Shown in pieces: positions 2,498 through 35,233 of a stretch of DNA of 64,000 bases; the first letter of the stretch is position 1; each line of letters starts with the position of its first letter. The notes beneath the pieces are model-generated. The model did not search any database, was not told the origin of the DNA, and saw nothing but the letters and a program-made list of their open reading frames with translations. The translations under genes and the position numbers were made by a program. Source of the DNA: Chloroflexota bacterium (GTDB taxonomy: Bacteria; Chloroflexota; Anaerolineae; Anaerolineales; UBA11579); contig JACPVG010000016.1 of assembly GCA_016191875.1 (NCBI GenBank), positions 42,444 to 106,443 of the forward strand, in the 5' to 3' direction.

Positions 2498-3604
2498 CTA
2501 ACCGCGTCGACCCCAGATCAGACCTTCCAGGAAGCGGACGAGGCGGCGCAGCCAGGAGCGGATGCGGGCCAGACGCCGCTGCTGCTGGAAGTTGATCGGC
2601 TTGGCGCTCGGGAACGGGCCGGTCCAGATGACCGTGACCGCGCCCCAGGTAAGGCCGCCCCCAAAGCCCACGAACACGATCTTATCATCTCTTCTCAGAC
2701 GGCCGGCCTCGGCTGCCTCAACTGTTGCGATGGGTATCGAAGCGGTTGAGGTGTTGCCATACTCCTGCAGGTTAACGATGAATTTCTCCATCGGGAGCTT
2801 GAGCCCGCGCGCGGCGGCATCGATTATGCGCAAGTTGGCCTGGTGCGGGATGATGAGGTCGATGTCCTCGAGCTGCAAACCGGCGCGGTCAACCACCTCT
2901 CTGGAGGCGTTGGCCATCACACGGGTGGCGAAGCGGAAGACTTCCCTGCCGTTCATCTGAATATAGTGCAGGCCATCGGCTATCGTTTGCGGCGTCGCGG
3001 GCATGGCGCTGCCGCCGGCCGGGAGGCAGAGCAGGTCTCCGCCGGAGCCATCTGAACGCATCACCGAGGAAATCACCCCGCCGGGCTCGTCGCTGCCCTG
3101 CAACACGAACGCTCCGGCGCCATCCCCGAAGAGGATGCAGGTTGTGCGATCGTTCCAATCTACCAGGCGAGAGAGCGTTTCCGCGCCGATGACGATGGCG
3201 TTACGGATCGCCCCGCCGCGGATGGCTTGGGTGGCCATGTTCATGGCGAAAATGAAGCCCGTGCAGGCCGCCAGCAAGTCAAAGGCGCCAGCGTTGATGG
3301 CGCCGATGCGATCCTGGATGACGGAGGCGGTGGCCGGGAAGATGTGCTGGGGGGAGGAGGTCGAGCAGATGATCAGGTCTACATCCCGAGGATGCAGATT
3401 GGCGACCTTAAGCGCCCTGATGGCGGCTTCAGCGCCGAGCGAGGCCGAGCTCTCTTCAGGAGCAGCGATGTGCCGGCGTTCGATGCCGGTGCGGTCGCGA
3501 ATCCATTCGTCATTGGTATCAACCATCTGAGCGAGGTCGTCATTCGTCAACACCTTTTCGGGGGCGCTCATTCCCCAACCGGTAATGTGGGCGTAGAGGG
3601 TCAT
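2498..3604 (-). CDS. fabH: 3-oxoacyl-ACP synthase III (FabH) with a ~40-aa basic amphipathic C-terminal extension
   Basis: MTLYAHITGWGMSAPEKVLTNDDLAQMVDTNDEWIRDRTGIERRH..., active-site context AACTGF, ...GFGGGLTWGA. Extra tail QQQRRLARIRSWLRRLVRFLEGLIWGRRG. Confidence 0.9.
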   Translation of the reverse strand: MTLYAHITGWGMSAPEKVLTNDDLAQMVDTNDEWIRDRTGIERRHIAAPEESSASLGAEAAIRALKVANLHPRDVDLIICSTSSPQHIFPATASVIQDRIGAINAGAFDLLAACTGFIFAMNMATQAIRGGAIRNAIVIGAETLSRLVDWNDRTTCILFGDGAGAFVLQGSDEPGGVISSVMRSDGSGGDLLCLPAGGSAMPATPQTIADGLHYIQMNGREVFRFATRVMANASREVVDRAGLQLEDIDLIIPHQANLRIIDAAARGLKLPMEKFIVNLQEYGNTSTASIPIATVEAAEAGRLRRDDKIVFVGFGGGLTWGAVTVIWTGPFPSAKPINFQQQRRLARIRSWLRRLVRFLEGLIWGRRG

Positions 3605-4857
3605 GCCTGGGCCTCGGCCGGCCGGGCCAAAATGATGGTGGCGTTGTGGCCGCCAAAGCCAAAGGAATTGGACATGGCATACGTCAGTTCCGCGGAGCGG
3701 GCCTGGTTGGGAACATAATCCAGGTCGCAGGCGGGATCAGGAGTTTCGTAGTTAATGGTTGGCGGGATGGTCTGTGCCGCGAGGGCTTTGACACACACCA
3801 GGGCTTCCATGGCGCCGGATGCGCCCAGCATGTGGCCGGTCATGGATTTGGTGGACGACACGGGGATGGCGTAGGCGCCTTCGCCGAACACGGTCTTGAT
3901 GGCGGCGGTCTCGTTCTTATCGTTCAGTTGCGTGCTGGTGCCATGGGCGTTGATGTAATCGATGGCGTCCGGCTGGAGATTGGCATCGTCCAGGGCCATT
4001 TGCATGCAGGCGACCGCGCCGGCGCCATTCTCGGCAGGAGCGGTGATGTGATAGGCATCGTTGGTGCTGCCGTAGCCGGCGACTTCGGCATAGATCCGTG
4101 CGCCGCGTGCCTGGGCGTGCTCCAATGACTCCAGCAACATTATGGCGCCGCCTTCGCCCATGAGAAAGCCATCGCGGGTCAGGTCGAACGGGCGGCTGGC
4201 GCGGGCGGGGTCGTCGTTACGGGTGGATAGTGCGGTCATGGAGGCCATGCCCGCCATGGCGATTGGGATGACGGAGGCTTCGGCGCCGCCCGCGAACATC
4301 ACGTCGGCCTGGCCGCGGCGAATCACTTCGGCGGCTTCGCCCAGCGCGTTGGTGCCGGTGGCGCAGGCCGTCACTACGGCAAGGTTGGATGCGCGGATAC
4401 CGAGGTGTATGGCGAGCATGCCGCCGGCGGTATCCGGCAGCATCATCGGGATGAGAAATGGACTGACGCGGGTGGGGCCCTGGGTCAGCATGACTTCGAT
4501 CTGTTCCGAGATGGTCCCCAGCCCGCCGATGCCAGAGCCGATGACGGCGCCGATGCGGTGGCGGTTGCCGTCGTCAATGGTCAGGCCGCTGTCGGAGAGG
4601 GCTTCGAGGGCAGCGGCCATGGCGAACTGCGTAAAGCGGTCCATGCGCCGGGCTTCTTTACGCCCAAACATGGAGTCCGGGTCCCAGCCCTTGACCTCGG
4701 CGGCGATACGGCACTTGTGTTCAGATGCATCGAACAATGTAACCGGCCCGCCCCCCGGCGTCCCGGCAACCAGATTGCTCCAGGTGGATTCAAGGGTATT
4801 TCCGACCGGGCTGACACAGCCCAGGCCGGTAATCACGATACGCTTACGGTCTTCCAT
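3601..4857 (-). CDS. fabF: 3-oxoacyl-ACP synthase II (FabF)
   Basis: RIVITGLGCVSPVGN..., VVTACATGTNALGEA, INAHGTSTQLND, SNSFGFGGHNATI. 4-nt overlap with fabH. GGAGG SD. Confidence 0.93.
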   Translation of the reverse strand: MEDRKRIVITGLGCVSPVGNTLESTWSNLVAGTPGGGPVTLFDASEHKCRIAAEVKGWDPDSMFGRKEARRMDRFTQFAMAAALEALSDSGLTIDDGNRHRIGAVIGSGIGGLGTISEQIEVMLTQGPTRVSPFLIPMMLPDTAGGMLAIHLGIRASNLAVVTACATGTNALGEAAEVIRRGQADVMFAGGAEASVIPIAMAGMASMTALSTRNDDPARASRPFDLTRDGFLMGEGGAIMLLESLEHAQARGARIYAEVAGYGSTNDAYHITAPAENGAGAVACMQMALDDANLQPDAIDYINAHGTSTQLNDKNETAAIKTVFGEGAYAIPVSSTKSMTGHMLGASGAMEALVCVKALAAQTIPPTINYETPDPACDLDYVPNQARSAELTYAMSNSFGFGGHNATIILARPAEAQA

Positions 4858-4917: not shown

Positions 4918-6117
4918 CTACGCGACGCGTTCCAGCGTGTTCGCTGCCTGCTGGATATGCAGACGGTCATGCCGGGCGCTGAACCGCATCAGCTCCAACA
5001 ACGTGGTGGGGCCAAAAATGCTGTGGCGGATCTGGCGTTCCCAGTCGGCGTCTGTCAGGGCATCCAACACGGCCATTATTTGGTAGCGCAGGTTCAGCCA
5101 TTCTTCCAGGACGGCCAGCGGGTCCTGTTCATTGTATCGGCGCGGTTTTGCCCATGTGTCCGGGTCAACGGCAGCAATGAATGCGTCCTCCGAGGAAAGG
5201 ATGGTTTTGAGCCGGGGCGCGGTCACTTCGGCGTCCACATCCCTGAAGTGACAGAGTATTTCGGTGAGGCTCCATTCACCCTCGGCGGGTCGGGTTCGCA
5301 ACGCGGCGAGGTCCTTCCCGGCCGCAAACGCGGCAATGGCTGCATGCGAGGTTCGGTAGGTGGCAAGGATGGCGTCGCGACTGTCCAGAGAAGGCACGAG
5401 GGTTTGGGCGGGCTGGGCGGAGATCCAATCCAGGATGTCTTCGATTCCGCCGGCGTTGTTTTTCCTAGGAGCGACCGAATCGGGTAAGTCGGTCCGGACG
5501 AGAAAAGATGCCAGACCAAGTTTCGCGGCGGGTGCGGCATCGTTTGCGGGGTCGTCGCCAATCACCAGGGCCGGGCCCTCAGGCCATCCCAGGCGGGCCA
5601 GCACCTCGGCGAAATAGGCCGGGCTGGGTTTGGTGAAGTGGAACTCTTCGTAGCAGGACACAAGGCTGAAGCTGTTGGCTTCGATCGGGAGTCCGGCCCA
5701 CGCCAGTCGCTGGGCAATGGCAGTCCGGGGGAACAGTGGGTTGGTGGCAATGGCGATGCGGTGGCCGCGATGGAATGCCTCCCTGACGAAGTCAATGGCC
5801 ACCGGACGCGGGGCGGTCAGCGTGGCGATGGCGGGGTACTTTTCGGCATAGTAGTGGTCAATCAGGTCCTGTGCGTCCGCACTGTTGAGCCCCAGGGCGG
5901 GGTAGAAGGCGTGGTCGAATGTCTGCTTGAGCGTCCGGCGCAGGTCGGTGTTTTCCTGCATGGCCTGGGTGGCTTTGAGCAGCGCGGGGACAAGCTCCTC
6001 GGGTGGGACATACGCGGACATCGCCTCGGCGAGACCGTTCAAATAGGCCGGGATGAACGCCCCCATATCGTTATCCAGCAAGGTATTGTCGAGATCAAGC
6101 AGGAGGGTCAGCGTCAT
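4918..6117 (-). CDS. HAD-superfamily hydrolase fused to a C-terminal DinB_2-like domain
   Basis: N-terminus MTLTLLLDLDNTLL (HAD motif I DxDxT), later GDDPANDA. C-terminus has DinB-like His residues (CHFRDVD...RHDRLH). Start moved from 6168 to the ATG at 6117, just before motif I. Confidence 0.8.
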   Translation of the reverse strand: MTLTLLLDLDNTLLDNDMGAFIPAYLNGLAEAMSAYVPPEELVPALLKATQAMQENTDLRRTLKQTFDHAFYPALGLNSADAQDLIDHYYAEKYPAIATLTAPRPVAIDFVREAFHRGHRIAIATNPLFPRTAIAQRLAWAGLPIEANSFSLVSCYEEFHFTKPSPAYFAEVLARLGWPEGPALVIGDDPANDAAPAAKLGLASFLVRTDLPDSVAPRKNNAGGIEDILDWISAQPAQTLVPSLDSRDAILATYRTSHAAIAAFAAGKDLAALRTRPAEGEWSLTEILCHFRDVDAEVTAPRLKTILSSEDAFIAAVDPDTWAKPRRYNEQDPLAVLEEWLNLRYQIMAVLDALTDADWERQIRHSIFGPTTLLELMRFSARHDRLHIQQAANTLERVA

Positions 6118-6442
6118 CGGTGGTCGCGAGGAATATGGGAGGCAGGGCGTGGCACTGACCGCAGCCAATCCTTGGTTCTGAGACTTCGCAGGCGCACTTG
6201 TTGCAGTGGGCAGTCAACTGCACCTGTTCGGCCAGTATGAGGAATGGCCGCTTCAGACTGGGCGCGAATTCCAGGTGTTCACAGGCGTTATCGCGCTGGA
6301 TATCCGGCATGGGACAGGTTTTGCAGTGCTGAGGCCGCCAGGCCAGTCCGGCCGCTTTGAGCAATCGGCATTCCTCGTGGTGCCGGCCGCGATAATAATC
6401 CCCGTAGAAGTAACGGCATTCCCTGCCGGAGGGGGTCAGCAT
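6095..6442 (-). CDS. Cys/His-rich small protein (10 Cys; CxxC motifs), hypothetical
   Basis: The ATG starts 1 nt after the efp stop (TAGCATG). CKTC, CNKCAC and CGQC motifs. Fills an otherwise 326-nt gap in a dense operon. Overlaps the HAD::DinB start by 23 nt. Confidence 0.6.
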   Translation of the reverse strand: MLTPSGRECRYFYGDYYRGRHHEECRLLKAAGLAWRPQHCKTCPMPDIQRDNACEHLEFAPSLKRPFLILAEQVQLTAHCNKCACEVSEPRIGCGQCHALPPIFLATTDDADPPA

Positions 6443-6443
6443 G

Positions 6444-7001
6444 CTACACGCGTGTCAGGTAAGCGCCGGTGCGGGTATCCACCCGGATGGTATCGCCGGT
6501 TTCGACAAACCCGGGAACAGAGACTTCCAGTCCGGTTTCAGTAACCACTTTCTTATTCACGCCGGTGGCGGTGTCTCCCCGCACGGAGGGTTCGGCCCGC
6601 ACCACCTCGAGCTCAACCGTCAGAGGCAGTTCTATGTCCAGGGTTTCGCCCTCGAAGACGGTGATCTTCACTTCCATCTGCTCCTTGAGGTAATTGGCGG
6701 CATCACCAACCACCGAGCCGGATAGGGCGGGCTGCTCATAGGTCTCAATATCCATGAAATGAAAGAACTCGCCATCCGAATAAAGGAATTGGGCGTTGTG
6801 AAATTCGAGCTGGACGTTTTCAACCCGTTCGCTGGAAGAAAACGTCTTCTCGATGGTGGCGCCAGAACGGAGGTTGATGGCTTTGACGCGGATGGTTGCC
6901 AGGCCGCGCCCAGGTTTGTTGTGGCTGTAGTCCAGGACTTTATAGAGCGCGCCATCCAGTTGAAACGTCACGCCTTTGCGAAGATCGTTAGCGTCAATCA
7001 T
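6444..7001 (-). CDS. efp: Translation elongation factor P (185 aa)
   Basis: MIDANDLRKGVTFQLDGALYKVLDYSHNKPGRGLATIRVK...VDTRTGAYLTRV. ORF-track N-terminal extension to 7169 rejected; it crosses repeat copy 2, and the ATG at 7001 gives a canonical EF-P. Confidence 0.95.
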   Translation of the reverse strand: MIDANDLRKGVTFQLDGALYKVLDYSHNKPGRGLATIRVKAINLRSGATIEKTFSSSERVENVQLEFHNAQFLYSDGEFFHFMDIETYEQPALSGSVVGDAANYLKEQMEVKITVFEGETLDIELPLTVELEVVRAEPSVRGDTATGVNKKVVTETGLEVSVPGFVETGDTIRVDTRTGAYLTRV

Positions 7002-7037
7002 AAAGAAGACCTCATGCAGGTGGATTTGAATCGGCGA

Positions 7038-7046
7038 ATTATACCA
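7038..7046 (-). promoter_or_regulatory. Candidate extended -10 (TGGTATAAT) for efp
   Basis: Minus strand reads GCTGGTATAATTCGCC about 37 nt upstream of the efp ATG. GAGG SD downstream. Confidence 0.4.
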
Positions 7047-7056
7047 GCGGGCTAAG

Positions 7057-7186
7057 TAGTCGGACGTAAGAGTTTTGAATTCAGTCGGAGTGGGGCAGCG
7101 ACCAACTAGTAAAGTAGTCCATGGGCATCTTGCGAGGAGAGTGACGCAGGAAGGTCGGAGTCCTTGCAAAAAGACTTTCAGTGGGC
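7057..7186 (+). repeat. Copy 2 of the ~130-nt intergenic repeat family
   Basis: GTAGTCGGACGTAAGAGTTTTGAATTCAGTCGGAG...CATCTTGCGAGGAGAGTGACGCAGGAAGGTCGGAGTCCTTGCAAAAAGACTTTCAGTGGGC. Abuts the stop codon of the HD-GYP gene. Confidence 0.8.
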
Positions 7187-7189
7187 CAC

Positions 7190-8545
7190 TTAGAAGATCG
7201 TGAGGAACGCCTCGACGAGCTTGGGGTCAAAGTGGGCTCCAGCCTGCGAGCGAATGTATTCCTTGGCGTTCTCAATCGGCCAGGCGTGGCTGTAGGGGCG
7301 GTCGGAGATCAGGGCATCCCAGACATCCACGATGGCAAAAATGCGCGCGGGCAGGGGAATCTCTTCGCCTTTCAGTCCGCGCGGGTAGCCGCTGCCATCC
7401 CACTTTTCATGGTGGCAGTAGGGGATATCGAGGGCGGGCCGCAGGTAGGTGATCGGCGAAAGCATTTCGTAGGCATAGAGCGGATGCTGGCGCATGATAT
7501 GCCACTCTTCTTCGGTCAATTCGCCGCGCTTCTGCAGGATGCTGTCCGGGATGCCCATCTTGCCGATATCGTGAAGCAATGCGCCGCGGTGAATGTTGAT
7601 GAGATCACTCCCGTTTATGCCGAGCGCGTGGGCCATTTTCAGCGTCAGGTCCAGGACGCGCCTGGAGTGCCCGTCGGTTTCCTTGTCGCGGAGTTCCAGG
7701 GCATGGGACCAGCCTTCCAGGGTGGCATCGTAGGCCAGCGCCAGTTCGCGCTCCTTTTGGACGCGTTCAGTGATCTCGCGGGAATTGATGGCCACCTGAA
7801 ACTCGTCCGTGCGGTCAAGCAGCGGTTTGAAGTGGCTTTCAAAAACATGCCAGGAGGAATCCTGGTGGCGAATGCGCAGTTCCGTAGATGTAAAGAAATC
7901 AGCGGATGTGCGGCAATGCTCAAGAATCTGTTCCGCCAATGCGCTATCATCCGGATGGAGAATTTCCATGAACTTGCGGCTAAGCAAGTTCTCGGGCAGA
8001 TACCCCAGGACGCGTTGGTGGGAGGGGCTGGAATAGGTGATGCGGCCCTCCAAGTCAACGAGAGCGATCAGGTCGCTGGCGTTCTCAATCAGTGAACGAA
8101 AGTGCTCTTCACTGCGCCGGAGGGCGATCTCGGCGCGTTTGCGCTCGATGGCATAGCGAATCGAGCGAACCACCAATTGATGGTCGGCGCGGCCCTTGAC
8201 CAGATAGTCCTGGGCGCCGCCGCGCACGGCTTCGATGGCGATCAGCTCGTCATCCGTGCCGGAGAGGACGACGATCGGCACGCCGCCACCGCGGGCGTGC
8301 AGTGAATAGAAGGTGGATAGGCCCTGGCTTTCAGGAAGACTGAGATCAAGCAAGACCACATCGAACTTCTCGTTGCGGACCTTCTGGAGGGCCTCTTTGA
8401 GGCGGTGAACCTGGACGACCTCAAAGCGCTGTACGCTGCCGCGTTCCAAGAACATGCGGATGAGGTTAGAGTGATCCTCATTGTCCTCGACCAGGAGGAC
8501 GCGCAGGACTTCATCGGTGAGAAACCGAAGGTGGCCTTCCGTCAT
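7190..8545 (-). CDS. Response regulator REC-PAS-HD-GYP (probable c-di-GMP phosphodiesterase)
   Basis: REC (VLLVEDNEDH...VVLLDLSLPESQG), a PAS-like middle, and an HD-GYP domain (HDIGKMGIP...HHEKWDGSGYPRGL). Confidence 0.9.
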   Translation of the reverse strand: MTEGHLRFLTDEVLRVLLVEDNEDHSNLIRMFLERGSVQRFEVVQVHRLKEALQKVRNEKFDVVLLDLSLPESQGLSTFYSLHARGGGVPIVVLSGTDDELIAIEAVRGGAQDYLVKGRADHQLVVRSIRYAIERKRAEIALRRSEEHFRSLIENASDLIALVDLEGRITYSSPSHQRVLGYLPENLLSRKFMEILHPDDSALAEQILEHCRTSADFFTSTELRIRHQDSSWHVFESHFKPLLDRTDEFQVAINSREITERVQKERELALAYDATLEGWSHALELRDKETDGHSRRVLDLTLKMAHALGINGSDLINIHRGALLHDIGKMGIPDSILQKRGELTEEEWHIMRQHPLYAYEMLSPITYLRPALDIPYCHHEKWDGSGYPRGLKGEEIPLPARIFAIVDVWDALISDRPYSHAWPIENAKEYIRSQAGAHFDPKLVEAFLTIF

Positions 8546-16943: not shown

Positions 16944-18701
16944 GTGAGCCGACGAAAAAGCAATCCCACCCAGAAGTGGTACGCGATTGACCTGCACTTG
17001 CATACGCCCGCGTCCAGCGACTACCAGCAAGAAGGGGTGACCTATCTGGATATCCTCAAGCGGGCCGAGACGCGCGCAGTCGATATCATCGCTTTTACCG
17101 ACCACAACACCGTGGCCGGCTATCGCAAGATGTACGAAGAAATCGAGCAGCTACGTCTGCTGGAGAACCTCAAGCGGATACTGCCGGAGGAGACATCCAG
17201 ACTGAAAGAATACGAGCGCCTGCTCAGGAAAGTGCTTGTGTTGCCGGGTTTTGAATTCACCGCCACCTTCGGATTTCACATACTGGGCGTCTTCCCGCCC
17301 GAGAAACCGATACGCGAGATCGAACATATTCTGCTGGATCTCAACGTGCCATCCGACCAGCTGGATGAGGGATCGGTAACCGTTGGGGCTTCTGCGGATG
17401 TGCTCTCGGCCTATGAAGCCATCCGTGGCGCCGGCGGGCTGGCCATTGCGGCGCACGCCAATTCAAGCAATGGCGTGGCGATGCGCGGGTTTCCCTTCGG
17501 CGGCCAGACCAAGATCGCCTATACACAGGACCCGCATCTGCACGCCCTGGAGGTGACGGACCTGGATCAACCTGGAGGGCGCACGACCGCCGGGTTCTTC
17601 TCCGGCATCAAGCCGGAGTACCCGCGCCGGATGCACTGCATCCAGGGGTCAGATGCCCACCGGCTGGATGGCGACCCCGCGCGCAAGAAGAATCCCGGCG
17701 TAGGGGAGCGGGTAACCGAGGTACTGCTCTCCTCGCCTTCGTTTGCCGCATTGGAGGCGCTGTTTTCCAGCAACGATTTTGCTCGAACACGGCCGCGCCG
17801 CAAACAGAAGGAAGACGCCGAATACGATTACATCCAGGCTGCCCAGGGCGAAGGCGGCAATATCATTCAGGATTTCCATGAACAAATGACGGTGCGCGGC
17901 GGCAAGCTCTATGCGGTTATCGCCGACGTGTGCGCGTTCGCGAATACCAATGGCGGTACGCTCTACATTGGCCTGGGCCGTGATCCGAAAGCCACTCCTC
18001 CGGGAGTCTCAAACGCCCAGCAGGCGGTGAAACAACTGGAGCAGGAAATCAGCACGCGCATCAGCCCGCCGCTCGCTTGCACTGTGGATAGCCACCATTC
18101 GCGCGGCAAGAACATCCTGCGCATTCTGGTGCCGCGCGGCGAGCAACCGCCGTATGCGGTGGACGAAAGCAAGATCTACATCCGGGAAGAAAACGAGACC
18201 AGCCTGGCCGTCCGGGACGAGATCGTCAACCTGATCCTGAGCGGCCAGAGCGCTCAACGGCTCAGCGCGCCGCCCATCCCGGAAGGGCGCACGCGAAAAG
18301 CACCCGCGGCGACCCCGCCTCTGGCGACAACGCGGGCCGCCGGAACCGCTGCGCCGCCGCGTACCGGCGTTGAGATTGTTTCCGTTACGGAGCGCGATGG
18401 TCAGGCGTATTACACGGTTAAGGATCTACGCAATGGTAACCAGGTCACAAACGTAACGATCAAGTCGGCGCGCCGCCTGTGGCATTATGCCATCACCAAG
18501 TATGCAGAAATGCCGAAGGATCTGAAGCAGGCGAACGTGAAATGGCATGGCGACCTCGGCCTGTTGCGCAGTTACAAGATGGGGCAGGGCGAACGGTTTG
18601 ATCTGGTGCAGCGCGGTGAGGAGTCGCCGCGCTTTTACTTTGGTGTGACCGAGGATGGCATCGACGGCCAGTGGCGGCAATTGCTCGGGCTGGACGAATA
18701 G
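16944..18701 (+). CDS. PHP-domain phosphoesterase fused to an AlbA_2 (Schlafen-like) nucleic-acid-binding domain plus an unknown C-terminal domain
   Basis: PHP motifs YAIDLHLHTPASSDY, IIAFTDHNT, AAHANS, GSDAH. AlbA_2-like VCAFANTNGGTLYIGLGRD...ILRILVPRGEQPPY. GTG start. Confidence 0.8.
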   Translation: MSRRKSNPTQKWYAIDLHLHTPASSDYQQEGVTYLDILKRAETRAVDIIAFTDHNTVAGYRKMYEEIEQLRLLENLKRILPEETSRLKEYERLLRKVLVLPGFEFTATFGFHILGVFPPEKPIREIEHILLDLNVPSDQLDEGSVTVGASADVLSAYEAIRGAGGLAIAAHANSSNGVAMRGFPFGGQTKIAYTQDPHLHALEVTDLDQPGGRTTAGFFSGIKPEYPRRMHCIQGSDAHRLDGDPARKKNPGVGERVTEVLLSSPSFAALEALFSSNDFARTRPRRKQKEDAEYDYIQAAQGEGGNIIQDFHEQMTVRGGKLYAVIADVCAFANTNGGTLYIGLGRDPKATPPGVSNAQQAVKQLEQEISTRISPPLACTVDSHHSRGKNILRILVPRGEQPPYAVDESKIYIREENETSLAVRDEIVNLILSGQSAQRLSAPPIPEGRTRKAPAATPPLATTRAAGTAAPPRTGVEIVSVTERDGQAYYTVKDLRNGNQVTNVTIKSARRLWHYAITKYAEMPKDLKQANVKWHGDLGLLRSYKMGQGERFDLVQRGEESPRFYFGVTEDGIDGQWRQLLGLDE

Positions 18702-25828: not shown

Positions 25829-25850
25829 GAAAAAATTACCAGCGGTTGCA

Positions 25851-26043
25851 GGGGAGAGCACCAGCCTGAAAAGGCTGGTCACCGAAGGGGCAAACCCATC
25901 CGCATGGCCGGATGGGTGAAACTCTCAGGTAAATGGACCCTGCCGCCGCCACTCTCTGGAAAGTCTCCGATGACTTTGTCGGAGACACCGACGGGGCAAG
26001 GACGGCCTGTGCCGTTCGAATCTCTCAGGTTCTCGACAGAGGG
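25851..26043 (+). promoter_or_regulatory. Tandem glycine riboswitch (two aptamers)
   Basis: Aptamer 1: GGGGAGAG...CACCGAAGGGGCAA...CTCTCAGGTAAATGGACC. Aptamer 2: CTCTGGAAAG...ACACCGACGGGGCAA...CTCTCAGGTTCTCGACAGAG. Directly upstream of gcvH. Confidence 0.9.
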
Positions 26044-26071: not shown

Positions 26072-26108
26072 CGTTATTTCCGAACTACGGCAGACCTGGA
26101 GGTTGTTG

Positions 26109-26501
26109 ATGAATATCCCCAAAGACCTGAAGTACACCCCGAACGACGAGTGGCTGCGGGTGGAAGGCAAGAAAGGCACGATTGGCATCACCGACTATGC
26201 TCAGGACCAACTCTCCGATATCGTGTTCATCGAATACACCGTTTCCCCCGGCGATGAGATCAAGAAAGGGACCGCGTTCGGGACGGTGGAATCGGTGAAG
26301 GCGGCGTCGGATATCTATTTGCCGGTAAGTGGGAAAGTGCTGGCCATCAATGAAGGGTTGCAGAACGCGCCCGAAACTGTAAACAGCGACCCGTACGGCA
26401 AGGCCTGGATGATCGAGATTGAACTCACGGAAGCGGGTGAGTTAGAGGGCCTGCTGGATGCTGCCGGATATGAGCAGCATTGCAAAGAAAGGGACGCCTG
26501 A
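26109..26501 (+). CDS. gcvH: Glycine cleavage system H protein
   Basis: YTPNDEWLRVEGKKGTIGITDYAQ...VESVKAASDIYLPVSG (lipoyl-Lys motif). ATG at 26109 lies 7 nt after GGAGG. Confidence 0.93.
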   Translation: MNIPKDLKYTPNDEWLRVEGKKGTIGITDYAQDQLSDIVFIEYTVSPGDEIKKGTAFGTVESVKAASDIYLPVSGKVLAINEGLQNAPETVNSDPYGKAWMIEIELTEAGELEGLLDAAGYEQHCKERDA

Positions 26502-27844
26502 TGTTCCATCCACATACCGAGAACGATCGGCAGGAGATGCTCAAGGCGATCGGTGTTGGGTCGCTTGAAGATCTCTTTTCCGGTATTCCTGAGAAACATC
26601 GTTTTCCCAGGCTCGACCTGCCAGAGCCGCTGACTGAAATGGAAGCGCTGGCCGAATTGCAGTCGATCGCGTCCGAAAATGACACAGCTCAGGACCTACC
26701 CTGTTTTCTGGGGGCGGGCGCCTATCATCACTATATCCCGGCCGTGGTCGATTCGATACTCAGGCGGGGAGAGTTCTACACGGCCTATACGCCCTATCAG
26801 CCCGAAATTTCCCAAGGCACGCTCCAGGTAATATTCGAATACCAGAGCCACATTGTGAACCTTACCGGCATGGATGTGTCGAATGCCTCGCATTACGATG
26901 GGGCAACGGCTGCGGCGGAGGCGATCAACATGGCGCAAGCCATCCAGCGCGGGAAGCGTAACAAGGCAGTGATCTCTCCGGCGGTGCATCCACACTACCG
27001 CGCCACCATCGATACTTACATCAAGAGCGCGGATTTCGAGATCGTTGGCGGAGACTTGGCGCCTACATCTGGACCGGAAGCGCTGATACCGCTCATCGAC
27101 CAGGATACCGCCGTGGTTATGGTGCAGTACCCGGATTTCTTCGGCCGCCTGTATGACTATGCCACGTTGAGTCGCGCGACGCATGAACTCGGTGCGTTGC
27201 TTGCCGTGGTGGTCAACCCGATAGCCCTGGCGATACTCAAGCCGCCAGCGGATTTCGGGGCAGACATCGTGTGCGGGGAGGGTCAGTCGCTGGGGCTGCC
27301 GCTCTCATTCGGCGGACCCTACCTGGGAATCCTTGCCACCAAGAACGAATACGTCCGAACCATCGCCGGACGGCTGGTGGGGGAAACGACCGACAGCGAT
27401 GGCAAGCGCGGATACGTGCTAACCCTGAGCACACGCGAACAGCACATCCGCCGCGAAAAGGCGGGCTCGAACATCTGCACCAATCAGGGTCTGATGGCAC
27501 TGGCGGCTACCGTTTACATCAGTCTGGTCGGGAAAGAGGGACTGCGCGAGGTGGCCGACCTGTGTTACCAAAAGGCGCATTACGCCGCCGGCGAGATCTC
27601 AAAGCTTAAGGGGTTCGCCTTGTGGCATGATGGCGAATTTTTCCACGAGTTTGTGGTGGCTTGCCCGCGTCCGGCCGAGGAAATCAACGCGCATCTCCTG
27701 GCCAACGGAATTCTTGGTGGGTACGCGGTCGGCAACGATTACCCAGAGATGGAGAATGCTGTCATGTTCGCAGTGACCGAGATGAATTCGCGTGAAGAGA
27801 TCGACTACCTGGTGAGCGTGTTGGCGGAGGTTGGCGATGACTGA
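26501..27844 (+). CDS. gcvPA: Glycine dehydrogenase (decarboxylating) subunit 1
   Basis: MFHPHTENDRQEMLKAIGV...FLGAGAYHHYIPAVV... TGATG overlap with the gcvH stop. Confidence 0.95.
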   Translation: MFHPHTENDRQEMLKAIGVGSLEDLFSGIPEKHRFPRLDLPEPLTEMEALAELQSIASENDTAQDLPCFLGAGAYHHYIPAVVDSILRRGEFYTAYTPYQPEISQGTLQVIFEYQSHIVNLTGMDVSNASHYDGATAAAEAINMAQAIQRGKRNKAVISPAVHPHYRATIDTYIKSADFEIVGGDLAPTSGPEALIPLIDQDTAVVMVQYPDFFGRLYDYATLSRATHELGALLAVVVNPIALAILKPPADFGADIVCGEGQSLGLPLSFGGPYLGILATKNEYVRTIAGRLVGETTDSDGKRGYVLTLSTREQHIRREKAGSNICTNQGLMALAATVYISLVGKEGLREVADLCYQKAHYAAGEISKLKGFALWHDGEFFHEFVVACPRPAEEINAHLLANGILGGYAVGNDYPEMENAVMFAVTEMNSREEIDYLVSVLAEVGDD

Positions 27845-29306
27845 AGCGGTGATTTATGACAAATCCGTCCCGGAGCGGCGCGGAGTGCGTTTTCCCGCAT
27901 CCGACGTCCCCAAGGCAAGTCTGCCGGCCAAGTTTAGGCGCAAAGGACTGACTCTTCCCGAAGTGGGCGAGCTGGAGGTGGCGCGCCACTTTACCCGCCT
28001 TTCTCAACTTAATCACAGCATCACCATCGGATTTTATCCGCTGGGTTCCTGCACCATGAAGTACAACCCGGTCATCAATGAAGAGACCGCCCGCCTGCCT
28101 GGCTTTGCCGCTATCCACCCACTACAGCCGGCTGAGACCGTGCAGGGCGCGCTGGCGTTGATGTATTTCCTGCAGCAGTTCCTGGCGGAGATCGGCGGTT
28201 TTGCGGGAGTGACGCTGCAACCCGCGGCCGGCGCACAGGGAGAGCTCACCGGGGTGATGATCATCCGCAAATATCACTATAAGAACGGGCAGGGGCAGCG
28301 CACCAAGATTCTTGTACCTGATTCGGCGCATGGCACCAACCCGGCCACCTCGGCGATGACGAACTACCAGGTGGTGGAGATCGCTTCAGACGAGCGCGGC
28401 AACATCGACCTGGAGGCGCTCAAGAAAGAACTGGATGACAGCGTGGCCGGGTTGATGCTGACCAACCCGAACACCCTCGGCCTGTTCGAGGAGCACGTGG
28501 AGGAAGTCATCCGCGCTGTTCACAGCGTGGGCGGGCTGGTCTACGGCGACGGAGCCAATATGAACGCCCTGCTCGGTGTGGCCCGCCCCGGAGACCTGGG
28601 CTTTGACATCCTGCATTACAACCTGCACAAGACCTTTACGACGCCGCACGGCGGGGGCGGGCCGGGCTGTGGCCCGGTTGCGGTCGCGGCCCACCTGGCG
28701 GATTACCTGCCTGGCCCGGTGGTTGAGGTCATTGAAGAAGGAAACGGGGAACAGCCGCCGGTCTTCGGGTTCATCACACCCAAGCACAGCATTGGCCGGG
28801 TGAAGGCATTTCACGGCCACTTTGGGATGATGGTGCGGGCGTTCACCTATATCCTGATGCACGGCGATCGTGGCCTGAGGGAAGTTGCCCAGCACGCGGT
28901 GCTCAACGCCAACTACCTGATGCACCAACTGAAAGACGTGTTCTCGCTGCCTTATGACCGAACGTGCATGCACGAGTTCGTGCTTGAAGGCCGCTGGGCG
29001 GACGCGCCGGATGTGCATGCGCTGGACGTGTCCAAGCGCCTGATGGACTTCGGTTTCCATCCGCCGACGAATTATTTCCCCCTGATCGTGCGCGAAGCGC
29101 TGATGATCGAGCCGACGGAAACGGAGACCAAGGAAACCCTGGATGCTTTTGCGGCGGCGATGCGTCAGATCGCCGATGAAGCGCACAACGACCCGGACGT
29201 GCTGCACGCCGCGCCGCACGTCACGCCCATAAAGCGGCTGGACGAAGTAAGCGCAGCCCGCAACCTGGTGTTGTGCTGCATGCCGCCCGGCAGGGAACCG
29301 GCCTGA
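27837..29306 (+). CDS. gcvPB: Glycine dehydrogenase (decarboxylating) subunit 2
   Basis: ...LGSCTMKYNP...NLHKTFTTPHGGGGPG (PLP Lys). GGAGG lies 6 nt before the ATG at 27837. Overlaps the gcvPA end. Confidence 0.95.
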   Translation: MTEAVIYDKSVPERRGVRFPASDVPKASLPAKFRRKGLTLPEVGELEVARHFTRLSQLNHSITIGFYPLGSCTMKYNPVINEETARLPGFAAIHPLQPAETVQGALALMYFLQQFLAEIGGFAGVTLQPAAGAQGELTGVMIIRKYHYKNGQGQRTKILVPDSAHGTNPATSAMTNYQVVEIASDERGNIDLEALKKELDDSVAGLMLTNPNTLGLFEEHVEEVIRAVHSVGGLVYGDGANMNALLGVARPGDLGFDILHYNLHKTFTTPHGGGGPGCGPVAVAAHLADYLPGPVVEVIEEGNGEQPPVFGFITPKHSIGRVKAFHGHFGMMVRAFTYILMHGDRGLREVAQHAVLNANYLMHQLKDVFSLPYDRTCMHEFVLEGRWADAPDVHALDVSKRLMDFGFHPPTNYFPLIVREALMIEPTETETKETLDAFAAAMRQIADEAHNDPDVLHAAPHVTPIKRLDEVSAARNLVLCCMPPGREPA

Positions 29307-29310
29307 AGCG

Positions 29311-29343
29311 AGCGCCCACGGCAGGTTCGTGGGCGCTTTTTTG
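29311..29343 (+). terminator. Rho-independent terminator after gcvPB
   Basis: AGCGCCCACG-GCAGGTT-CGTGGGCGCT followed by TTTTTT. Confidence 0.8.
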
Positions 29344-29376
29344 TTGACGCAGGCAAGTGGTAAAATTCCTGCCCCT

Positions 29377-31086
29377 ATGGGTACACGATTCCAATTATCC
29401 AGTTTGAGCGATACAGTTCAGATCTTCTTGCCGGATGGGCGCGCCATTAGCGGCCCGCGCGGCGCGGAGGTGGGGGATTTCCTGACGTTGATCGGGGATG
29501 TGGAACAGGCGCAGATCGTTGGGGCGTTGATCAACGGCGTGCTGCGTGAACTGACTACCCCAATCGAGATCGAATCCAGAGTCGAACCACTGGTAATGGA
29601 CACAACCGATGGGATGCGCATCTACCGCCGGTCGTTGACTTTCCTTCTGGATACGGTGTTCGAGGAACTTTATCCGGGTAGCCACCTGATCGTTGACCAT
29701 TCGGTCTCCTTCGGCGGATACTTCTGCCGCGTGACCGGCTGCGAACCGCTGACCCAGGCCGACCTGGACAGGATTTCAGCGCGAATGCGCGAGCTTGTTG
29801 AGCAAGACCTGCCTATCGCGCGCAAAGAGGTGCCGCTGGCCGAAGCCATCGAAATGTTCCAGGCGGCCGGGCAGTTGGACAAAGTGCAACTGCTGGCACA
29901 CCGGAAGAAAGACTACCTCATTCTTTACGAATTGAACGGCAACCGGGACTACCATCACGGTTATATGGTGCCCTCAAGCGGTTATTTGCGCTGGTTCGAA
30001 CTGTCCTACATTGAGGGTGGATTCACCCTGCGATTTCCGCGCCGGCATAGCTCCACTGAAATCCAACCTCTGGGTGACTACCCCAAATTGCTGGCGACCT
30101 TCCGTGAATATGGCGATTGGCTCGAAACGCTGGGCATCGACAGCGTGGGCGCGCTCGACGATGCCATCCAGGAAGGCCGCATTCGGGAAGTTATCCTGGT
30201 TTCGGAGGCGCTGCACGAGCAGCGCATTGCAGACATCGCCAGCCAGATCGCGGCCAGGAAGGATGAAGTGCGGGTCGTACTAATTGCCGGACCCTCTTCT
30301 TCGGGGAAGACCACGACCTCCAAGCGCTTGTCGGTGCAACTGTTGACCTATGGGTTGCATCCCTATCCGCTGGAGATGGACAACTTCTTCGTCGCCCGCG
30401 ACCGTACACCGAAAGACGAGAAGGGTGAATTCGATTTTGAACACATCGACGCCATTGACCGGCCGCGGTTGAACCGGGACCTGAAAAGACTGATCGCCGG
30501 CGAGCTGGTGCAACTGCCCCGTTACGATTTTCAGTCAGGGGATAGCGTTCGAGGGAAACGGGTGCAATTGGCGGAGAATCAGATCATCATCGTGGAAGGG
30601 ATTCATGGACTGAACCCGAAGTTGCTGTCGGAGATCCCCGAATCGCAGTTGTTCCGTATTTACATCTCGGCGCTCACCCAGCTGAATCTGGACCGGCACA
30701 ACCGGGTTTCGACCACCGACAACCGGCTGATCCGCCGAATCGTGCGGGATGCGCGCACACGCGGCTACAGCCCACAGGAAACGATTCGCCGGTGGGAATC
30801 TGTGCGGCGTGGCGAGAAGAACTATATATTCCCGTATCAGGAGAATGCCGACGTGATCTTCAACTCTGCGCTTGTTTATGAACTGGCGGCGCTGAAGACC
30901 CAGGCGGAGCCGCTCTTGCGACAGGTACCGGTTACCAGCCCGGAGCGCGTTGAGGTGAAACGCCTGCTGGCGCTGCTGGAGTGGTTTCTGCCTCTGGACG
31001 CCGACCTGATTCCTGATAACTCGCTCCTACGGGAATTCATCGGTGGTTCGATCCTGGAGGACTTCCAGGTGTGGAAAAATCCCTGA
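29377..31086 (+). CDS. Uridine-kinase/PRK-family P-loop protein with ThrRS-like N-terminal TGS and second-additional-like domains
   Basis: N-terminus [23 protein letters not shown] (TGS-like). P-loop [10 protein letters not shown]. ...[11 protein letters not shown]. Start trimmed to the ATG at 29377, downstream of the terminator. Confidence 0.8.
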
Positions 31087-31709: not shown

Positions 31710-34700
31710 TCACGCCTTGGGGAAGCGACTGATCACGATAGCCGGGGTAGGGATGGTCGCGCGGTCGCCAGGTTTCAATTCAGCCGGAGTTTTGCCGGGC
31801 TTATCAGAGGCGCTCTGGAAAACCAGCCATGGCGTATCCTTTTTGGTAAATTCCGATTCGACGAAAGCCTGACCGGTGAGGAAGCCGTCGGAATCGATGG
31901 CGCAGGAAGTTACCTTGCCGATGACCTTGCCGCGCTTATCGAGCACGGGATCGCCCAAGTGCGCCATGCGGACGCCTTTTTCCATGAACCGGAAACGAGC
32001 CACCCGCCCTTTGCGGGCGGCTTCTCGGGCGAGGAAGGCATCCCTGCCTACGAACCAGGGCTTGTAGGTCTTCACGTACGTGCCGAAGGCCGCCTCGCCA
32101 ACCCCCAGGTTGAGTTCACCGCCCATTTCGTGCCCGTAGAGCGGCAGGCCGGCCTCGGTTCGCAGCGAATCGCGCGCGCCCAGGCCGCAGGGCTTCAGGC
32201 CGAGCGGCGCGCCGGCTTCAAGCAGCCGATCCCAGAGTTCAGGCGCTATACCGGGGTGGATGAAAAGCTCGAAAGCCATCGATTCGCCCGTGTAGCCGGT
32301 GCGGGAAACCACCAGGTCAAAGCCGCCAACCACGGCCTCGCACAACTCGGTGCGCTTGAGCCCCGCGATGCGGGCGCGGGTTTCTTCGTCAACGCCGAGG
32401 GATAACAGAATCTCGCGGGACTTCGGACCCTGGAGGGCGATATCCACGCGCATGTCATCGCCTTCCTTCGGGTCGCGCAGGTTGCGCAGGCGGACGTTGC
32501 GACCGAAGGCCCGGCTGGCAGAGCGTTTGCGGTCCACGAGGAGTTCCCCACTGCGGATGCCCTGAAGCCAGGCCCAGTCCTTATCGTCGTTGGAGGCGTT
32601 GACCACCACAAGGTAACGGTCTTCCCCACGCCGATAAACGAGCAGGTCGTCAATCACGTTAGCGTCGGGATCAAGGAAGTGGGTGTATAGTGATTCTCCC
32701 ACTTTCAGCGCGGATATGTCGTTGCCACAGACCGAATCGAGGAAGGTGGCCGCGTCGGAGCCTTCGGCCTGATACACCCCCATGTGGGAGACATCGAACA
32801 GGCCGGCGGCCTGCCGTACAGCCAGATGTTCCTCGACCACCGACGAATACCAGACGGGCATATCCCAGCCGGCAAACGGGACCATTTTAGCCCCAAGGGC
32901 CTTATGGGCAGCATGCAGGCTGGTCACCCGTAGTTCAGTCGGTTCGGTTTCGGTCCAGGTAAAGTCGGGCAAGGGGTTTGCGGTGGAGGAGCCGGCGCCG
33001 ATGAAATATGGCTTGGTATCGCCCTTCTCCGGTTTGCCCTTGGCGGCGTCAGCGGGCTGTTCAGATTCCTTGATCGATATGGGGCCGGGCAGTTTGCGCA
33101 GAAGGTCGTCATCGATCTTCACATAGCCATCCGAAAGGTCGCGCAGCCAGGTCGCCACGCGGCCAAAGTCTTTGGCTGGCAGGCTCAATCTAAACGAGTC
33201 TGTGCCTGCTTTGGCGATCACGACGCTTGCCGGACCATCCGGGTGATTGAGGGTAGCCGGTCGTGGAGAGCCGGCTTTCTTGTCTTCCAGGTCGGCAGAG
33301 AGTATGAAGTTCATGAACTGGTCGGCGCGCGGCCCATGGATGTCGAGGGCAACATGGTCTGAATCACTGGCGGGACGGTCATCGGCGTAGAAAAAATGGG
33401 GGTACGAGGAGGTGGGTGGAGTGAAGTCGATCCCGGCCGTAAGGGCCAGGTTGCGGGTACGCAGGCGGGCATCCTGAAGAACTGCGAAGTCGACCTTGGC
33501 GCGCTGGTTCAGTTTGCGAGTCGACTCCTGGCGAAAAGGTGTGCAGGCCTGCAGAAGGTCGGCGATGACATCGGCCAGGACGGCGGTCTCTTTTTCGCCG
33601 AAGCCACGCTGGGTGATCCAGGGCGTGCCCATGCGGATGCCGGAAGGGTTGAGCGCCGAGCGGTCACCGGGGATGGTGTTGCGGTTGACCACGATGCCGG
33701 CCAGGTCGAGGATGCGGGCGGCCATATCGCCGGTGAGGGGTGTGCCATCCGGGCCCTGCACCGAGCGAACATCCAAGTTCATCAGGTGGCTGCCAGTCCC
33801 TCCGAAGGGTATGCGGAAACCGCGCTCCTGGAAGCGCTGGGTAAAGGCGGCGCAATTCTTCACAATCTGTTCCTGGAGGCTCCGGAATTCGGGCGTGCGA
33901 GCGAGTTTGAAGGTAATAGCCAGGGCGGCGAAGACGTTGACGTGCGGGCCACCTTGTTCGCCGGGGAACACAGCCCGGTCGATCTTCCTGGAGAGTTCCC
34001 TGTTTGTGGTCAGGATTATGGCGCCGCGCGGCCCGCAGAGCGTCTTGTGGGTGGTGGAGGTGATGACGTGGGCGTGCCCGACCGGCGAAGGATAGACGCC
34101 GGCGGCCACCAACCCGGCCACATGGGCCATATCGGCCAACAGGTAGGCGCCCACCGAGTCGGCGATGGCGCGCAGGGCGGCCCAATCTGCGGGCCAGGGA
34201 TACGAAGAGAACCCGCCGATAATCATCTTGGGCTTGTGTTGATGGGCCAGGGCGGCAACCGCCTCGTAGTCGATGCGCTCGGTTTGCGGGTCGACGGTGT
34301 AGTGCACGATGTTGTAGTATTTACCAGAGCGGTTGACCGGCGAGCCGTGTGAAAGATGGCCGCCGTGCAGCAAATCCATGCCCATCACGGTATCGCCGGG
34401 GTTGACCAGGGCATGGTAGACGGCGTTGTTGGCTGGCGCGCCGGAGAGCGCCTGGACGTTTACATAGAGATCGTCGGCGCTTACCCCGTTGGCGGCGAAC
34501 GTTTCGGCACAGCGGCGGCGGGCGAGCGCTTCGACGATATCGGCGTACTCGACGCCTTTGTAGTAACGCGGGTCGGAGTATCGGCGGTAATGGCCGAGGC
34601 GGGCGTCGTAATCCAGCAGTTGTTCTTCGGTCATCCAGCGTGTGGCCTCATCGGGATAGCCTTCGGCGTAGATGTTGTGAAAGGGAGTGCTCAACGCTTC

Positions 34701-34838: not shown

Positions 34839-35233
34839 TGGTGGCGCTCCTCGAGAGTATTCGGTGGGATGAATTGTAGTCTTTCGGATGGGCGGGGTCA
34901 AGTTTGCAGACTGGCGGGCAAATAAATAGCGCCGGAGCAGCGTGTCCGCCAGCGAAGAGATTTTCGACTAGTTGGCCTCTAGTCCAAAGTGGGCTGGCCT
35001 ACTTCTCTTCCGGCCGTCGCTTCATCCTCTCGGATGATCTGGCAGATTGCCAGTGGTCAAATTATCCCGCAAGCCTGTCCTGCTTTATTAGTTCGACGGC
35101 CGTCTGAGTATTTGCTTACTCCGGCGTTATTTACTTGTGAATTCAGTATACGGCGGGGGACGGCGGGTATTAGGTGACAGATGTCCCGCTTATGGGGGGA
35201 CAGGTTTCCTGCCTGGCGCATGGGCCGGTAATC

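Follow-up and report, generated by a model that had tools for sequence, protein, structure and literature searches.

In some elongation factor P (EF-P) proteins the tip of the β3/β4 loop is an arginine. In EarP-type EF-Ps this residue is rhamnosylated by EarP (Lassak 2015); EpmA requires lysine. A conserved gene neighborhood was reportedly what first tied earP and epmB to efp. Here we describe the efp locus of a Chloroflexota bacterium (Anaerolineae; Anaerolineales; UBA11579) in assembly GCA_016191875.1, contig JACPVG010000016.1, positions 42,444 to 106,443 of the forward strand. This whole stretch of 64,000 nt is called the window, and all coordinates are in window numbering, with position 1 as its first letter. 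In it, the gene for an EF-P with arginine at the tip is followed by a gene for a small Cys-rich protein and a gene for a HAD phosphatase-like domain fused to a DinB_2 domain (HAD::DinB). We tentatively propose, as a reading that falls somewhat short of probable, that the three genes form a lineage-specific, co-expressed module of Anaerolineae-type Chloroflexota with a function tied to EF-P.

For about half of bacteria, no system that modifies their EF-P is known, and an arginine EF-P of unknown modification has been recognized in Thermotogota (PMC11388002). According to the same source, earP and epmB are typically encoded beside efp and transferred along with it, and EarP has been transferred horizontally into several phyla (PMC11388002). 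In a set of 1166 EF-Ps, Arg stood at the tip in 14.75%, and 2.33% of those had Pro at position −2 relative to the tip; EarP-type EF-Ps showed selection against Pro at this position (PMC6544042). An engineered E. coli K34R protein, which has a KPGRG core, retained 20% activity when unmodified and was inactive once rhamnosylated, and the S30P substitution in P. putida EF-P reduced rhamnosylation to <1% of the normal rate (PMC6544042). A further study counted, across 14 phyla, 206 Arg-type EF-Ps that lack EarP, and its authors noted that genomic data alone cannot separate "unmodified" from "modified by an unknown pathway" (PMC12931083). Arg-type EF-Ps of D. radiodurans and N. communis were functional without modification in E. 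coli, and a structure of T. thermophilus EF-P on the ribosome was cited as having no sign of modification (PMC12931083). Herpetosiphon aurantiacus EF-P, the sole Chloroflexota protein tested, was barely active alone in E. coli and was not rhamnosylated by EarP; the authors preferred phylogenetic distance to a missing modification as the reason for its weakness (PMC12931083). The prior that an Arg-tip EF-P of this kind is simply unmodified is substantial.

Linkage of efp, the Cys-rich gene and HAD::DinB

The three genes lie on the minus strand:

6444–7001 (−): efp, a canonical three-domain EF-P of 185 aa with Pfam domains EFP_N, EFP and Elong-fact-P_C.
6095–6442 (−): the Cys-rich protein, 115 aa with 10 Cys and two putative four-ligand metal sites.
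4918–6117 (−): the HAD::DinB_2 fusion, 399 aa with Pfam domains Hydrolase/HAD_2 and DinB_2.

The efp stop codon (TAG, 6446–6444) is separated by a single C (6443) from the ATG (6442) of the Cys-rich open reading frame (ORF), a spacer of 1 nt. The HAD::DinB ATG at 6117 is 23 nt ahead of the Cys-rich stop, so that the two ORFs overlap by 23 nt. The 1-nt spacer, the 23-nt overlap and the 10-Cys, 115-aa product had been described in an initial annotation made from the sequence alone and were borne out here, as was, by Pfam, the fusion of a HAD phosphatase-like domain to DinB_2. A second public assembly of the same DNA (6.9 kb), with an independent gene call, contained the same three products of 185, 115 and 399 aa.

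Conservation of the neighborhood was examined separately for two subfamilies. For the window subfamily, 86 loci (80 from GTDB genomes and six contig look-ups) were seeded from the Cys-rich gene. A same-strand efp was present <300 nt upstream of the Cys-rich gene in 69/82 loci and <1 kb upstream in 78/82, and HAD::DinB was directly downstream in 77/86. The other neighbors in the window were retained in 47–59% of the loci: a response regulator (RR) gene in 36/68, DUF192 in 32/68, LysM-M23 in 38/64, fabF in 34/66 and fabH in 35/66. The initial annotation had allowed that the adjacency might be incidental, since fabF and fabH follow in the same direction. That possibility is weakened by the retention of fabF and fabH in only about 50% of loci and of efp in far more; it keeps some force because background synteny is high. 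The spacer between efp and the Cys-rich gene was −1 to ~16 nt in 17/69 loci, which suggests selected translational coupling. When loci were chosen by EF-P similarity alone, the Cys-rich gene was directly downstream of efp in 5/5.

For the divergent subfamily, JGI metagenome contigs were scanned with a hand-made pattern, YY[EA]D..RGR...ECR, and all 120 of its 120 matches were true members of the Cys-rich family. Here efp adjoined the Cys-rich gene in 45 of 90 informative loci and was within 4.5 kb in 4 more, and HAD::DinB adjoined in 46/86. Thus the linkage that the initial annotation had named as a check held in close relatives and was lost in about half of the divergent members. The unlinked divergent loci had no shared alternative partner, the best neighbor being found in 7 of the 39 examined. 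Among four still more divergent members, one had the order DinG-Cys-HAD::DinB without efp (L213) and three were located among metabolic or transport genes. Across the roughly 200 loci, the commonest neighbor of the Cys-rich gene is by far efp, followed in constancy by HAD::DinB. The linkage is strong yet not universal, a pattern as would be expected of a functional module.

Several loci showed that the parts can be rearranged. The order was hpf-efp-Cys-HAD::DinB-ftsH in L082 and efp-Cys-ftsH, without HAD::DinB, in L083 and L085; efp-Cys pairs without HAD::DinB were also found in L020, L038 and L051. A gene was inserted between efp and the Cys-rich gene in other loci, encoding a metallo-beta-lactamase-fold protein in L032 and L047 and a multi-pass membrane protein of ~900 aa in L136, L158 and L192. 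The gene for the ~900-aa membrane protein, seen also in L134, L139 and L141, is directly upstream of the Cys-rich gene in other metagenomic relatives.

These arrangements bear on an alternative that we consider possible but somewhat doubtful, namely that the linkage is merely inherited gene order. The Cys-rich gene and HAD::DinB would then be a unit of their own, concerned for example with thiol or redox handling or with metabolite repair and having no EF-P-specific function; in an ancestor of the Anaerolineae this unit would have come to lie behind the efp promoter, which is strong and constitutive on this view, and would mostly have remained there, with the Arg-tip EF-P working unmodified. 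In agreement with this, the Cys-HAD::DinB pair persists without efp in L213, L030, L033 and L069. However, efp is the commonest neighbor and still adjoins when both flanks change, and the short spacers suggest that the coupling was selected. The efp-Cys pairs without HAD::DinB in five loci also show that the Cys-rich gene does more than accompany HAD::DinB.

The EF-P and its loop

The loop of the window EF-P reads HNKPGR32GLA; the seven residues of the β3/β4 loop are K-P-G-R32-G-L-A, which puts Arg at the tip and Pro at −2. All three EF-P Pfam domains scored above their gathering cut-offs, and so did NCBIfam models TIGR00038 (227.3 bits; cut-off 185.8) and NF001810 (233 bits; cut-off 161). In HMMER alignments to solved EF-Ps, window residues 4–185 fell on residues 6–187 of E. 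coli EF-P and R32 fell on K34, confirming the assignment of Arg32 to the modification-tip position in the initial annotation. R32 also aligned with Arg32 of Thermus thermophilus EF-P (YQHQKLGRGGA). The loop region was gap-free against the E. coli protein (offset +2) and against T. thermophilus and Firmicutes EF-Ps as well. Bit scores were 183 for Lys-type Firmicutes EF-Ps, 158 for T. thermophilus over its full length and 86 for P. aeruginosa (3OYY). Judged by these alignments, the window protein is an Arg-tip EF-P on a "lysine-family" backbone, outside the rhamnosylated clade.

Three other identities were considered. EfpL/YeiP was rejected because NF003392 reached 127.9 bits (cut-off 216) and TIGR02178 reached 122 bits (cut-off 264), and because the loop has no insertion. 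An EarP-type identity was rejected because, although the Arg tip is present, Pro30 occupies −2 and the P. aeruginosa score is low. The loop K-P-G-R-G-L-A does not match the PGKGP-type unmodified EF-P of Actinobacteria.

Among the homologues listed (n = 120), all had an Arg tip, reading K[PST]GRG in 119 and KTARG in one. All of the EF-Ps adjoining a Cys-rich gene (118/118) read K[PTSM]GRG, with P in 98, T in 16, S in 2 and M in 2 at position −2. Such uniformity indicates that the Arg tip is no chance substitution. The co-variation with the KPGRG loop that the initial annotation had named as a check cannot discriminate, because every EF-P seen in the clade has Arg.

The closest described proteins are the Arg-type EF-Ps without a known modifier: those of T. 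thermophilus (PDB 1UEB/4V6A, KLGRGGA), D. radiodurans, Thermotogota and H. aurantiacus (Brewer and Wagner 2024, PMC11388002; Brewer et al. 2026, PMC12931083). The window EF-P has the same seven-residue Arg-tip loop, the same "lysine-type" backbone, a full-length alignment to the T. thermophilus protein and no EarP found among the neighboring ORFs scanned; it differs in its Pro at −2 and in its conserved Cys-rich and HAD::DinB neighbors. EarP-type EF-Ps resemble it in the Arg tip and in having a candidate accessory gene beside efp, as earP often is, but their loop is K-S-G-R-N-A, and the window neighbors are a metal-binding protein and HAD::DinB, not a glycosyltransferase. The KPGRG core is identical to that of E. 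coli K34R (Volkwein 2019, PMC6544042). That protein was engineered, whereas the window EF-P is natural, is presumably the sole and functional EF-P and has another backbone (HHK/HNK before the loop). From these comparisons the window EF-P, for which EarP was looked for in 26 window ORFs, probably belongs with the published arginine-type EF-Ps without a known modification system and would be a new member of an already known class. The initial annotation had treated Arg-tip EF-Ps as SGRNAA proteins modified by EarP and the present loop as a hybrid. The first statement must be corrected in view of the T. thermophilus KLGRG loop and the 206 Arg-type EF-Ps without EarP (PMC12931083). As to the second, the rarity of Pro at −2 stands (2.33% of Arg-type; PMC6544042), and the general Arg-type class without EarP is not new.

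A known system encoded elsewhere in the genome, either EarP with dTDP-rhamnose or EpmAB, might still modify the window EF-P, but we regard this as highly improbable. The part of the genome inspected was 64 kb, and EarP is known to have moved between phyla (PMC11388002). Pfam scans of 26 of the ~59 window ORFs turned up no EarP, EpmA/B/C or DHS domain; the earlier statement that the window has no EarP-like glycosyltransferase holds to that extent. Likewise, earP (PF10093) was not found among the called neighbors in the annotated efp-containing loci L081–L086 and L207–L210. EpmA would lack the lysine that it needs. EarP would meet Pro at −2, which nearly abolishes rhamnosylation in P. putida, and its product on the E. 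coli KPGRG loop is inactive (PMC6544042); it also fails to modify H. aurantiacus EF-P (PMC12931083). The lysine-family backbone (183 and 158 bits against 86), the Pro at −2 and this published enzymology are the reasons for which we judge such a system unlikely.

The Cys-rich protein

The 10 Cys residues of the window copy are at positions 9, 25, 40, 43, 54, 80, 83, 85, 94 and 97. Its 92 homologues were 45–64% identical and had 8 invariant Cys, and all of the organism-named ones came from metagenome-assembled genomes (MAGs) of Chloroflexi/Anaerolineae. The invariant N-terminal motif is M-x-T-P-x-G-x-E-C-x-Y-F-Y-G-D-Y-Y-R-G-R-x-x-E-E-C-R-L. The positions that do not vary in the family are M1, P4, the hairpin motif F-Y-G-D-Y-x-R-G-R, E23, C9/C25/C40/C43/C54/C80/C94/C97 and H98. 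The family is carried by 251 GTDB species genomes, and a profile search of 1.84 billion representative proteins gave only 164 clusters, among which there was no informative domain fusion. Longer matches look like frameshift read-throughs or bear C-terminal membrane segments. One divergent member was from an Ardenticatenaceae MAG.

Named sources of the family were all Chloroflexota (Anaerolineae-type) except one contig binned as Fodinibius. This contig (L208; GCA_011775925.1, JAABYM010000219.1), labeled Aliifodinibius/Fodinibius sp. (Balneolota), encodes an EF-P 74% identical to that of the window and has the full Anaerolineae gene order, RR-DUF192-M23 / efp-Cys-HAD::DinB-ftsH. Because of this complete order, it is probably mis-binned rather than a case of gene transfer. 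In two long-read assemblies (L086 and L210) the Cys-rich ORF was intact by tblastn yet was uncalled or called on the wrong strand, and in L209 both the Cys-rich ORF and HAD::DinB were broken up, for which frameshifts in the assembly are the probable cause. The family would therefore be under-reported by counts that rely on gene calls.

The window copy had no match in Pfam or NCBIfam, and 26 divergent members gave only scattered single matches to these databases (best E = 0.004). A family profile searched against PDB sequences had a best E of 1.1, and a Foldseek search of the model against the PDB had a best E of 2.7. The AlphaFold2 model was compact and confident, with a predicted local distance difference test score (pLDDT) of 89.6 and a predicted template-modeling score (pTM) of 0.76. 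From these sequence and model comparisons the protein appears to fit no described family (zinc ribbons, McsA, rubredoxin, ferredoxin and ribosomal Zn proteins). One member, P0054, has been named McsA by JGI. This name was rejected as spurious, since no Pfam or NCBIfam McsA/UVR match was found at permissive thresholds. Like McsA, the zinc-finger activator of the protein-arginine kinase, the Cys-rich protein is small with several Cys pairs, and a common theme of arginine modification is tempting, but the Cys spacing differs and there is no McsB nearby. A full-text literature search found no description of the family or of the efp-Cys-HAD::DinB module, and both appear to be undescribed.

Divergent relatives pointed to the grouping of the ligands. 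Where Cys54 was replaced by Ser, a His was present at position 83, three residues after Cys80, in 13/13 members; this His83 was absent in 12 of 13 members with Cys54. The swap argues for a mononuclear four-ligand site. We propose that C54 or H83 forms one putative metal site with C80, C94 and C97 (plus H98), and that C9, C25, C40 and C43 form a putative second one. The Cys-rich protein is most likely a structural protein with two metal ions, probably zinc, and not an enzyme. A [4Fe-4S] or radical-SAM-like role was set aside, because the Cys-to-His swap and the two separate four-ligand sets would fit mononuclear zinc-type sites better.

Mean pairwise distances were 0.49 for the Cys-rich protein, 0.37 for EF-P, 0.40 for FabF and 0.89 for HAD::DinB. 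By this measure the Cys-rich protein is strongly constrained and evolves about as slowly as EF-P and FabF, with HAD::DinB evolving twice as fast.

This constraint would also suit a lineage-specific, zinc-binding ribosome-associated or translation factor whose expression is tied to that of efp and which does not itself act on EF-P, an idea to which we give little credence. Its size of ~110 aa and its two Cys4-type sites recall zinc-ribbon ribosomal proteins, it is conserved like housekeeping proteins, and it is encoded with a translation factor and at one locus with hpf too (L082). The family is mildly basic (median isoelectric point 8.4), but ribosomal proteins tend to have higher values, and that of the window copy is 6.6. 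Neither its fold nor its sequence is like that of ribosomal proteins in the PDB, some relatives have membrane anchors, and unlinked copies are found among metabolic genes.

HAD::DinB

Residues 1 to ~235 of HAD::DinB are a HAD domain with a C1 cap, and residues ~245–399 are a DinB_2 four-helix-bundle metal domain. The HAD half scored above the cut-off of TIGR01549, and the DinB_2 half matched PF12867 with 58.4 bits against a cut-off of 24.8. The HAD motifs are D8-L-D10-N-T12, T125, K163 and G187-D-D-P-A-N-D193, each named residue being present in at least 95% of 120 homologues and mostly in 120/120. In the DinB_2 half C289, H290, H365, H383 and H387 were invariant in the 120 homologues, and by position H290, H383 and H387 would form the three-His metal site. 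The AlphaFold2 model (pLDDT 94.7, pTM 0.93) had the two domains packed rigidly.

In Foldseek searches the N-terminal half matched C1-capped small-molecule phosphatases (HDHD3 and NANP with E = 6e-8 and below, and others), and the C-terminal half matched YfiT, the bacillithiol transferase prototype (TM score 0.75 on the target). No NCBIfam equivalog reached its cut-off for HAD::DinB; the YfiT model NF009807 gave 33 bits against 160. The HAD half shares all four motifs and the helical cap with the C1-capped HAD-IA phosphatases, and the DinB half shares with YfiT/BstA the DinB_2 match, the YfiT fold and the conserved His triad. The window protein differs from both in fusing the two domains and in having an invariant Cys289 beside the first metal-binding His, plus H365. 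From sequence and model it looks like an active bifunctional small-molecule enzyme, with no feature that singles out a protein as its substrate. The likeness to small-molecule phosphatases and to the bacillithiol transferase is also what would be expected if the Cys-rich gene and HAD::DinB were an independent unit.

HAD::DinB may be the source of a novel kind of modification at the Arg32 tip, made or installed from a phosphorylated or thiol-linked precursor, with the Cys-rich zinc protein as the EF-P-recognizing subunit. We think this unlikely, and equally so the broader proposal that the KPGRG EF-P is activated by a fifth, chemically new route, or alternatively that HAD::DinB removes a phospho- or thiol-linked intermediate. 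Arginine is not a known target of HAD or DinB chemistry, which counts against it, as does the capped HAD fold, which favors a small-molecule substrate. Moreover, where the Cys-rich gene is kept, HAD::DinB is missing from ~10% of close loci and ~47% of divergent ones. On the other side are the conservation of the efp-Cys-HAD::DinB trio and of both HAD::DinB centers in 120 homologues, and the rigid packing of the two domains. The habit of earP and epmB of lying beside efp (PMC11388002) and the low activity of unmodified E. coli K34R with its identical KPGRG (PMC6544042) point the same way. The H. aurantiacus EF-P, nearly inactive alone in E. coli, would fit a missing modification too, but its authors preferred another explanation (PMC12931083).

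Transcription unit and flanking genes

The three genes are part of a compact five-gene run on the minus strand (efp, the Cys-rich ORF, HAD::DinB, fabF and fabH), whose further features are as follows:

3601–4857 (−): fabF, beta-ketoacyl-ACP synthase II, with Pfam domains ketoacyl-synt and Ketoacyl-synt_C.
2498–3604 (−): fabH (KAS III), with Pfam domains ACP_syn_III and ACP_syn_III_C.
7002–7189 (−): efp intergenic leader of 188 nt, with a possible promoter and ribosome-binding site read by eye.
2457–2486: terminator-like hairpin, a 13-bp G+C-rich palindrome just past the fabH stop.

fabF begins 60 nt downstream of HAD::DinB, and fabH and fabF overlap by 4 nt. The efp leader contains a perfect TATAAT with a preceding TGG at ~7036–7044 and a GAGG 8–11 nt upstream of the ATG, which are a possible promoter and ribosome-binding site of the efp unit. 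The TATAAT was not listed by a consensus promoter scan, because it lacks a good −35 element. The hairpin at 2457–2486 is the sole strong terminator-like element from efp through the end of fabH. Because the junctions are tight, no terminator-like site precedes the end of fabH, and the leader has motifs resembling a promoter and a ribosome-binding site, co-transcription of the run is likely. fabF is probably in the same transcript as the efp unit, outside the conserved module, and fabH is the probable last gene of the transcription unit. Rfam and tRNA scans gave no match in the efp region.

A gene for a response regulator-PAS-HD-GYP protein, 7190–8545 (−), separates efp from a divergent RR-DUF192-LysM/M23 cluster. 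Because efp directly adjoins that cluster in L085, L208, L209 and L210, four close relatives, the gene looks like an insertion in the lineage of the window. Past its Pfam domain, whose end is near residue 327 of 368, FabH continues in a C-terminal tail of ~40 aa. This basic, amphipathic tail (...RRLARIRSWLRRLVRFLEGLIWGRRG) is also aligned in many relatives, with tblastn matches extending to residues 364–367.

Elsewhere in the window, a 1063-aa ORF at 31710–34901 (−) matches PF00464 (serine hydroxymethyltransferase) and PF01571 (T-protein/aminomethyltransferase) and thus apparently encodes a fusion, SHMT::GcvT. At 25841–25950 (+) there is a glycine riboswitch aptamer (Rfam RF00504, 59 bits), upstream of genes at 26103–29306 that look like gcvH and two gcvP subunits, identities guessed from sequence. 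Two 585-aa proteins have unusual domain combinations: PHP with Schlafen/AlbA_2 at 16944–18701 (+), and TGS with a phosphoribulokinase/uridine-kinase domain at 29329–31086 (+).

Discussion

Our preferred reading is that efp, the Cys-rich gene and HAD::DinB act together. We favor it because of the tight coupling of the genes, the linkage found from both the efp and the Cys-rich sides, its survival across changed flanks and the constraint on the Cys-rich protein, and a functional tie of the module to EF-P is plausible. The three genes would be transcribed from the efp promoter, and the Cys-rich protein would be produced in step with EF-P through termination-reinitiation at TAG-C-ATG. It would fold around its two structural metal sites, most likely with zinc, and act on or with EF-P, either binding at the Arg32 loop as a partner or adaptor or working at the site that EF-P occupies on the ribosome. 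HAD::DinB, with an intact phosphatase center and a three-His metal center, would most likely process a small phosphorylated and/or thiol-reactive metabolite in the same task. What was observed is the order and spacing of the genes, how far their linkage is conserved, the catalytic and ligand residues and the confidence of the folds; co-transcription, the identity of zinc, and whatever contact with EF-P or chemistry at Arg32 there may be are inferred.

Several results weigh against this reading. efp is absent in 41/90 (~46%) of the divergent loci and in 4/82 of the window-subfamily loci, from which it follows that the Cys-rich family functions without adjacency to efp; the 41 divergent loci are what would be expected if the Cys-rich gene and HAD::DinB had only come to rest behind efp. 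Gene order is generally well kept in these genomes, and the divergent RR-DUF192-M23 cluster upstream of efp recurs too. In a mirror-tree comparison of 31 loci, EF-P and the Cys-rich protein gave r = 0.70 and EF-P and FabF gave 0.73, no excess over the fabF/fabH background; high synteny together with a mirror-tree without signal is likewise compatible with inherited order. We rejected the mirror-tree as a discriminating test, since partial correlations were uninformative, the value being as low as 0.16 for the two halves of one fused protein, HAD::DinB. The data come from a single lineage whose EF-Ps all have the Arg tip, which leaves no group for contrast. Some distant members of the Cys-rich family have C-terminal membrane segments. 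The modeled likeness of the capped HAD to small-molecule phosphatases and of DinB to thiol S-transferases does not point to EF-P in either case. Finally, the D. radiodurans Arg-type EF-P works unmodified, and the T. thermophilus EF-P-ribosome structure is cited as free of any sign of modification (PMC12931083). The D. radiodurans result, together with the similar one for N. communis, would also agree with inherited gene order around an EF-P that works unmodified (PMC12931083).

For one lineage with Arg-type EF-P, the module reading provides candidates that can be cloned: a putative metal-binding protein of ~110 aa, whose translation is probably coupled to that of efp in hundreds of Anaerolineae genomes, and the frequently attached HAD::DinB. 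If a route to Arg32 does run through them, no earlier EF-P maturation system would have combined a HAD phosphatase with a DinB metal domain, and the route would be the first system assigned to the large Arg-type EF-P class without a known modifier. If the neighbors are unrelated to EF-P, the Cys-rich family would still be an undescribed, highly conserved family with two metal sites in an abundant environmental lineage. The window EF-P itself would still be a naturally occurring exception to the rule that Pro at −2 is not found with an Arg tip.

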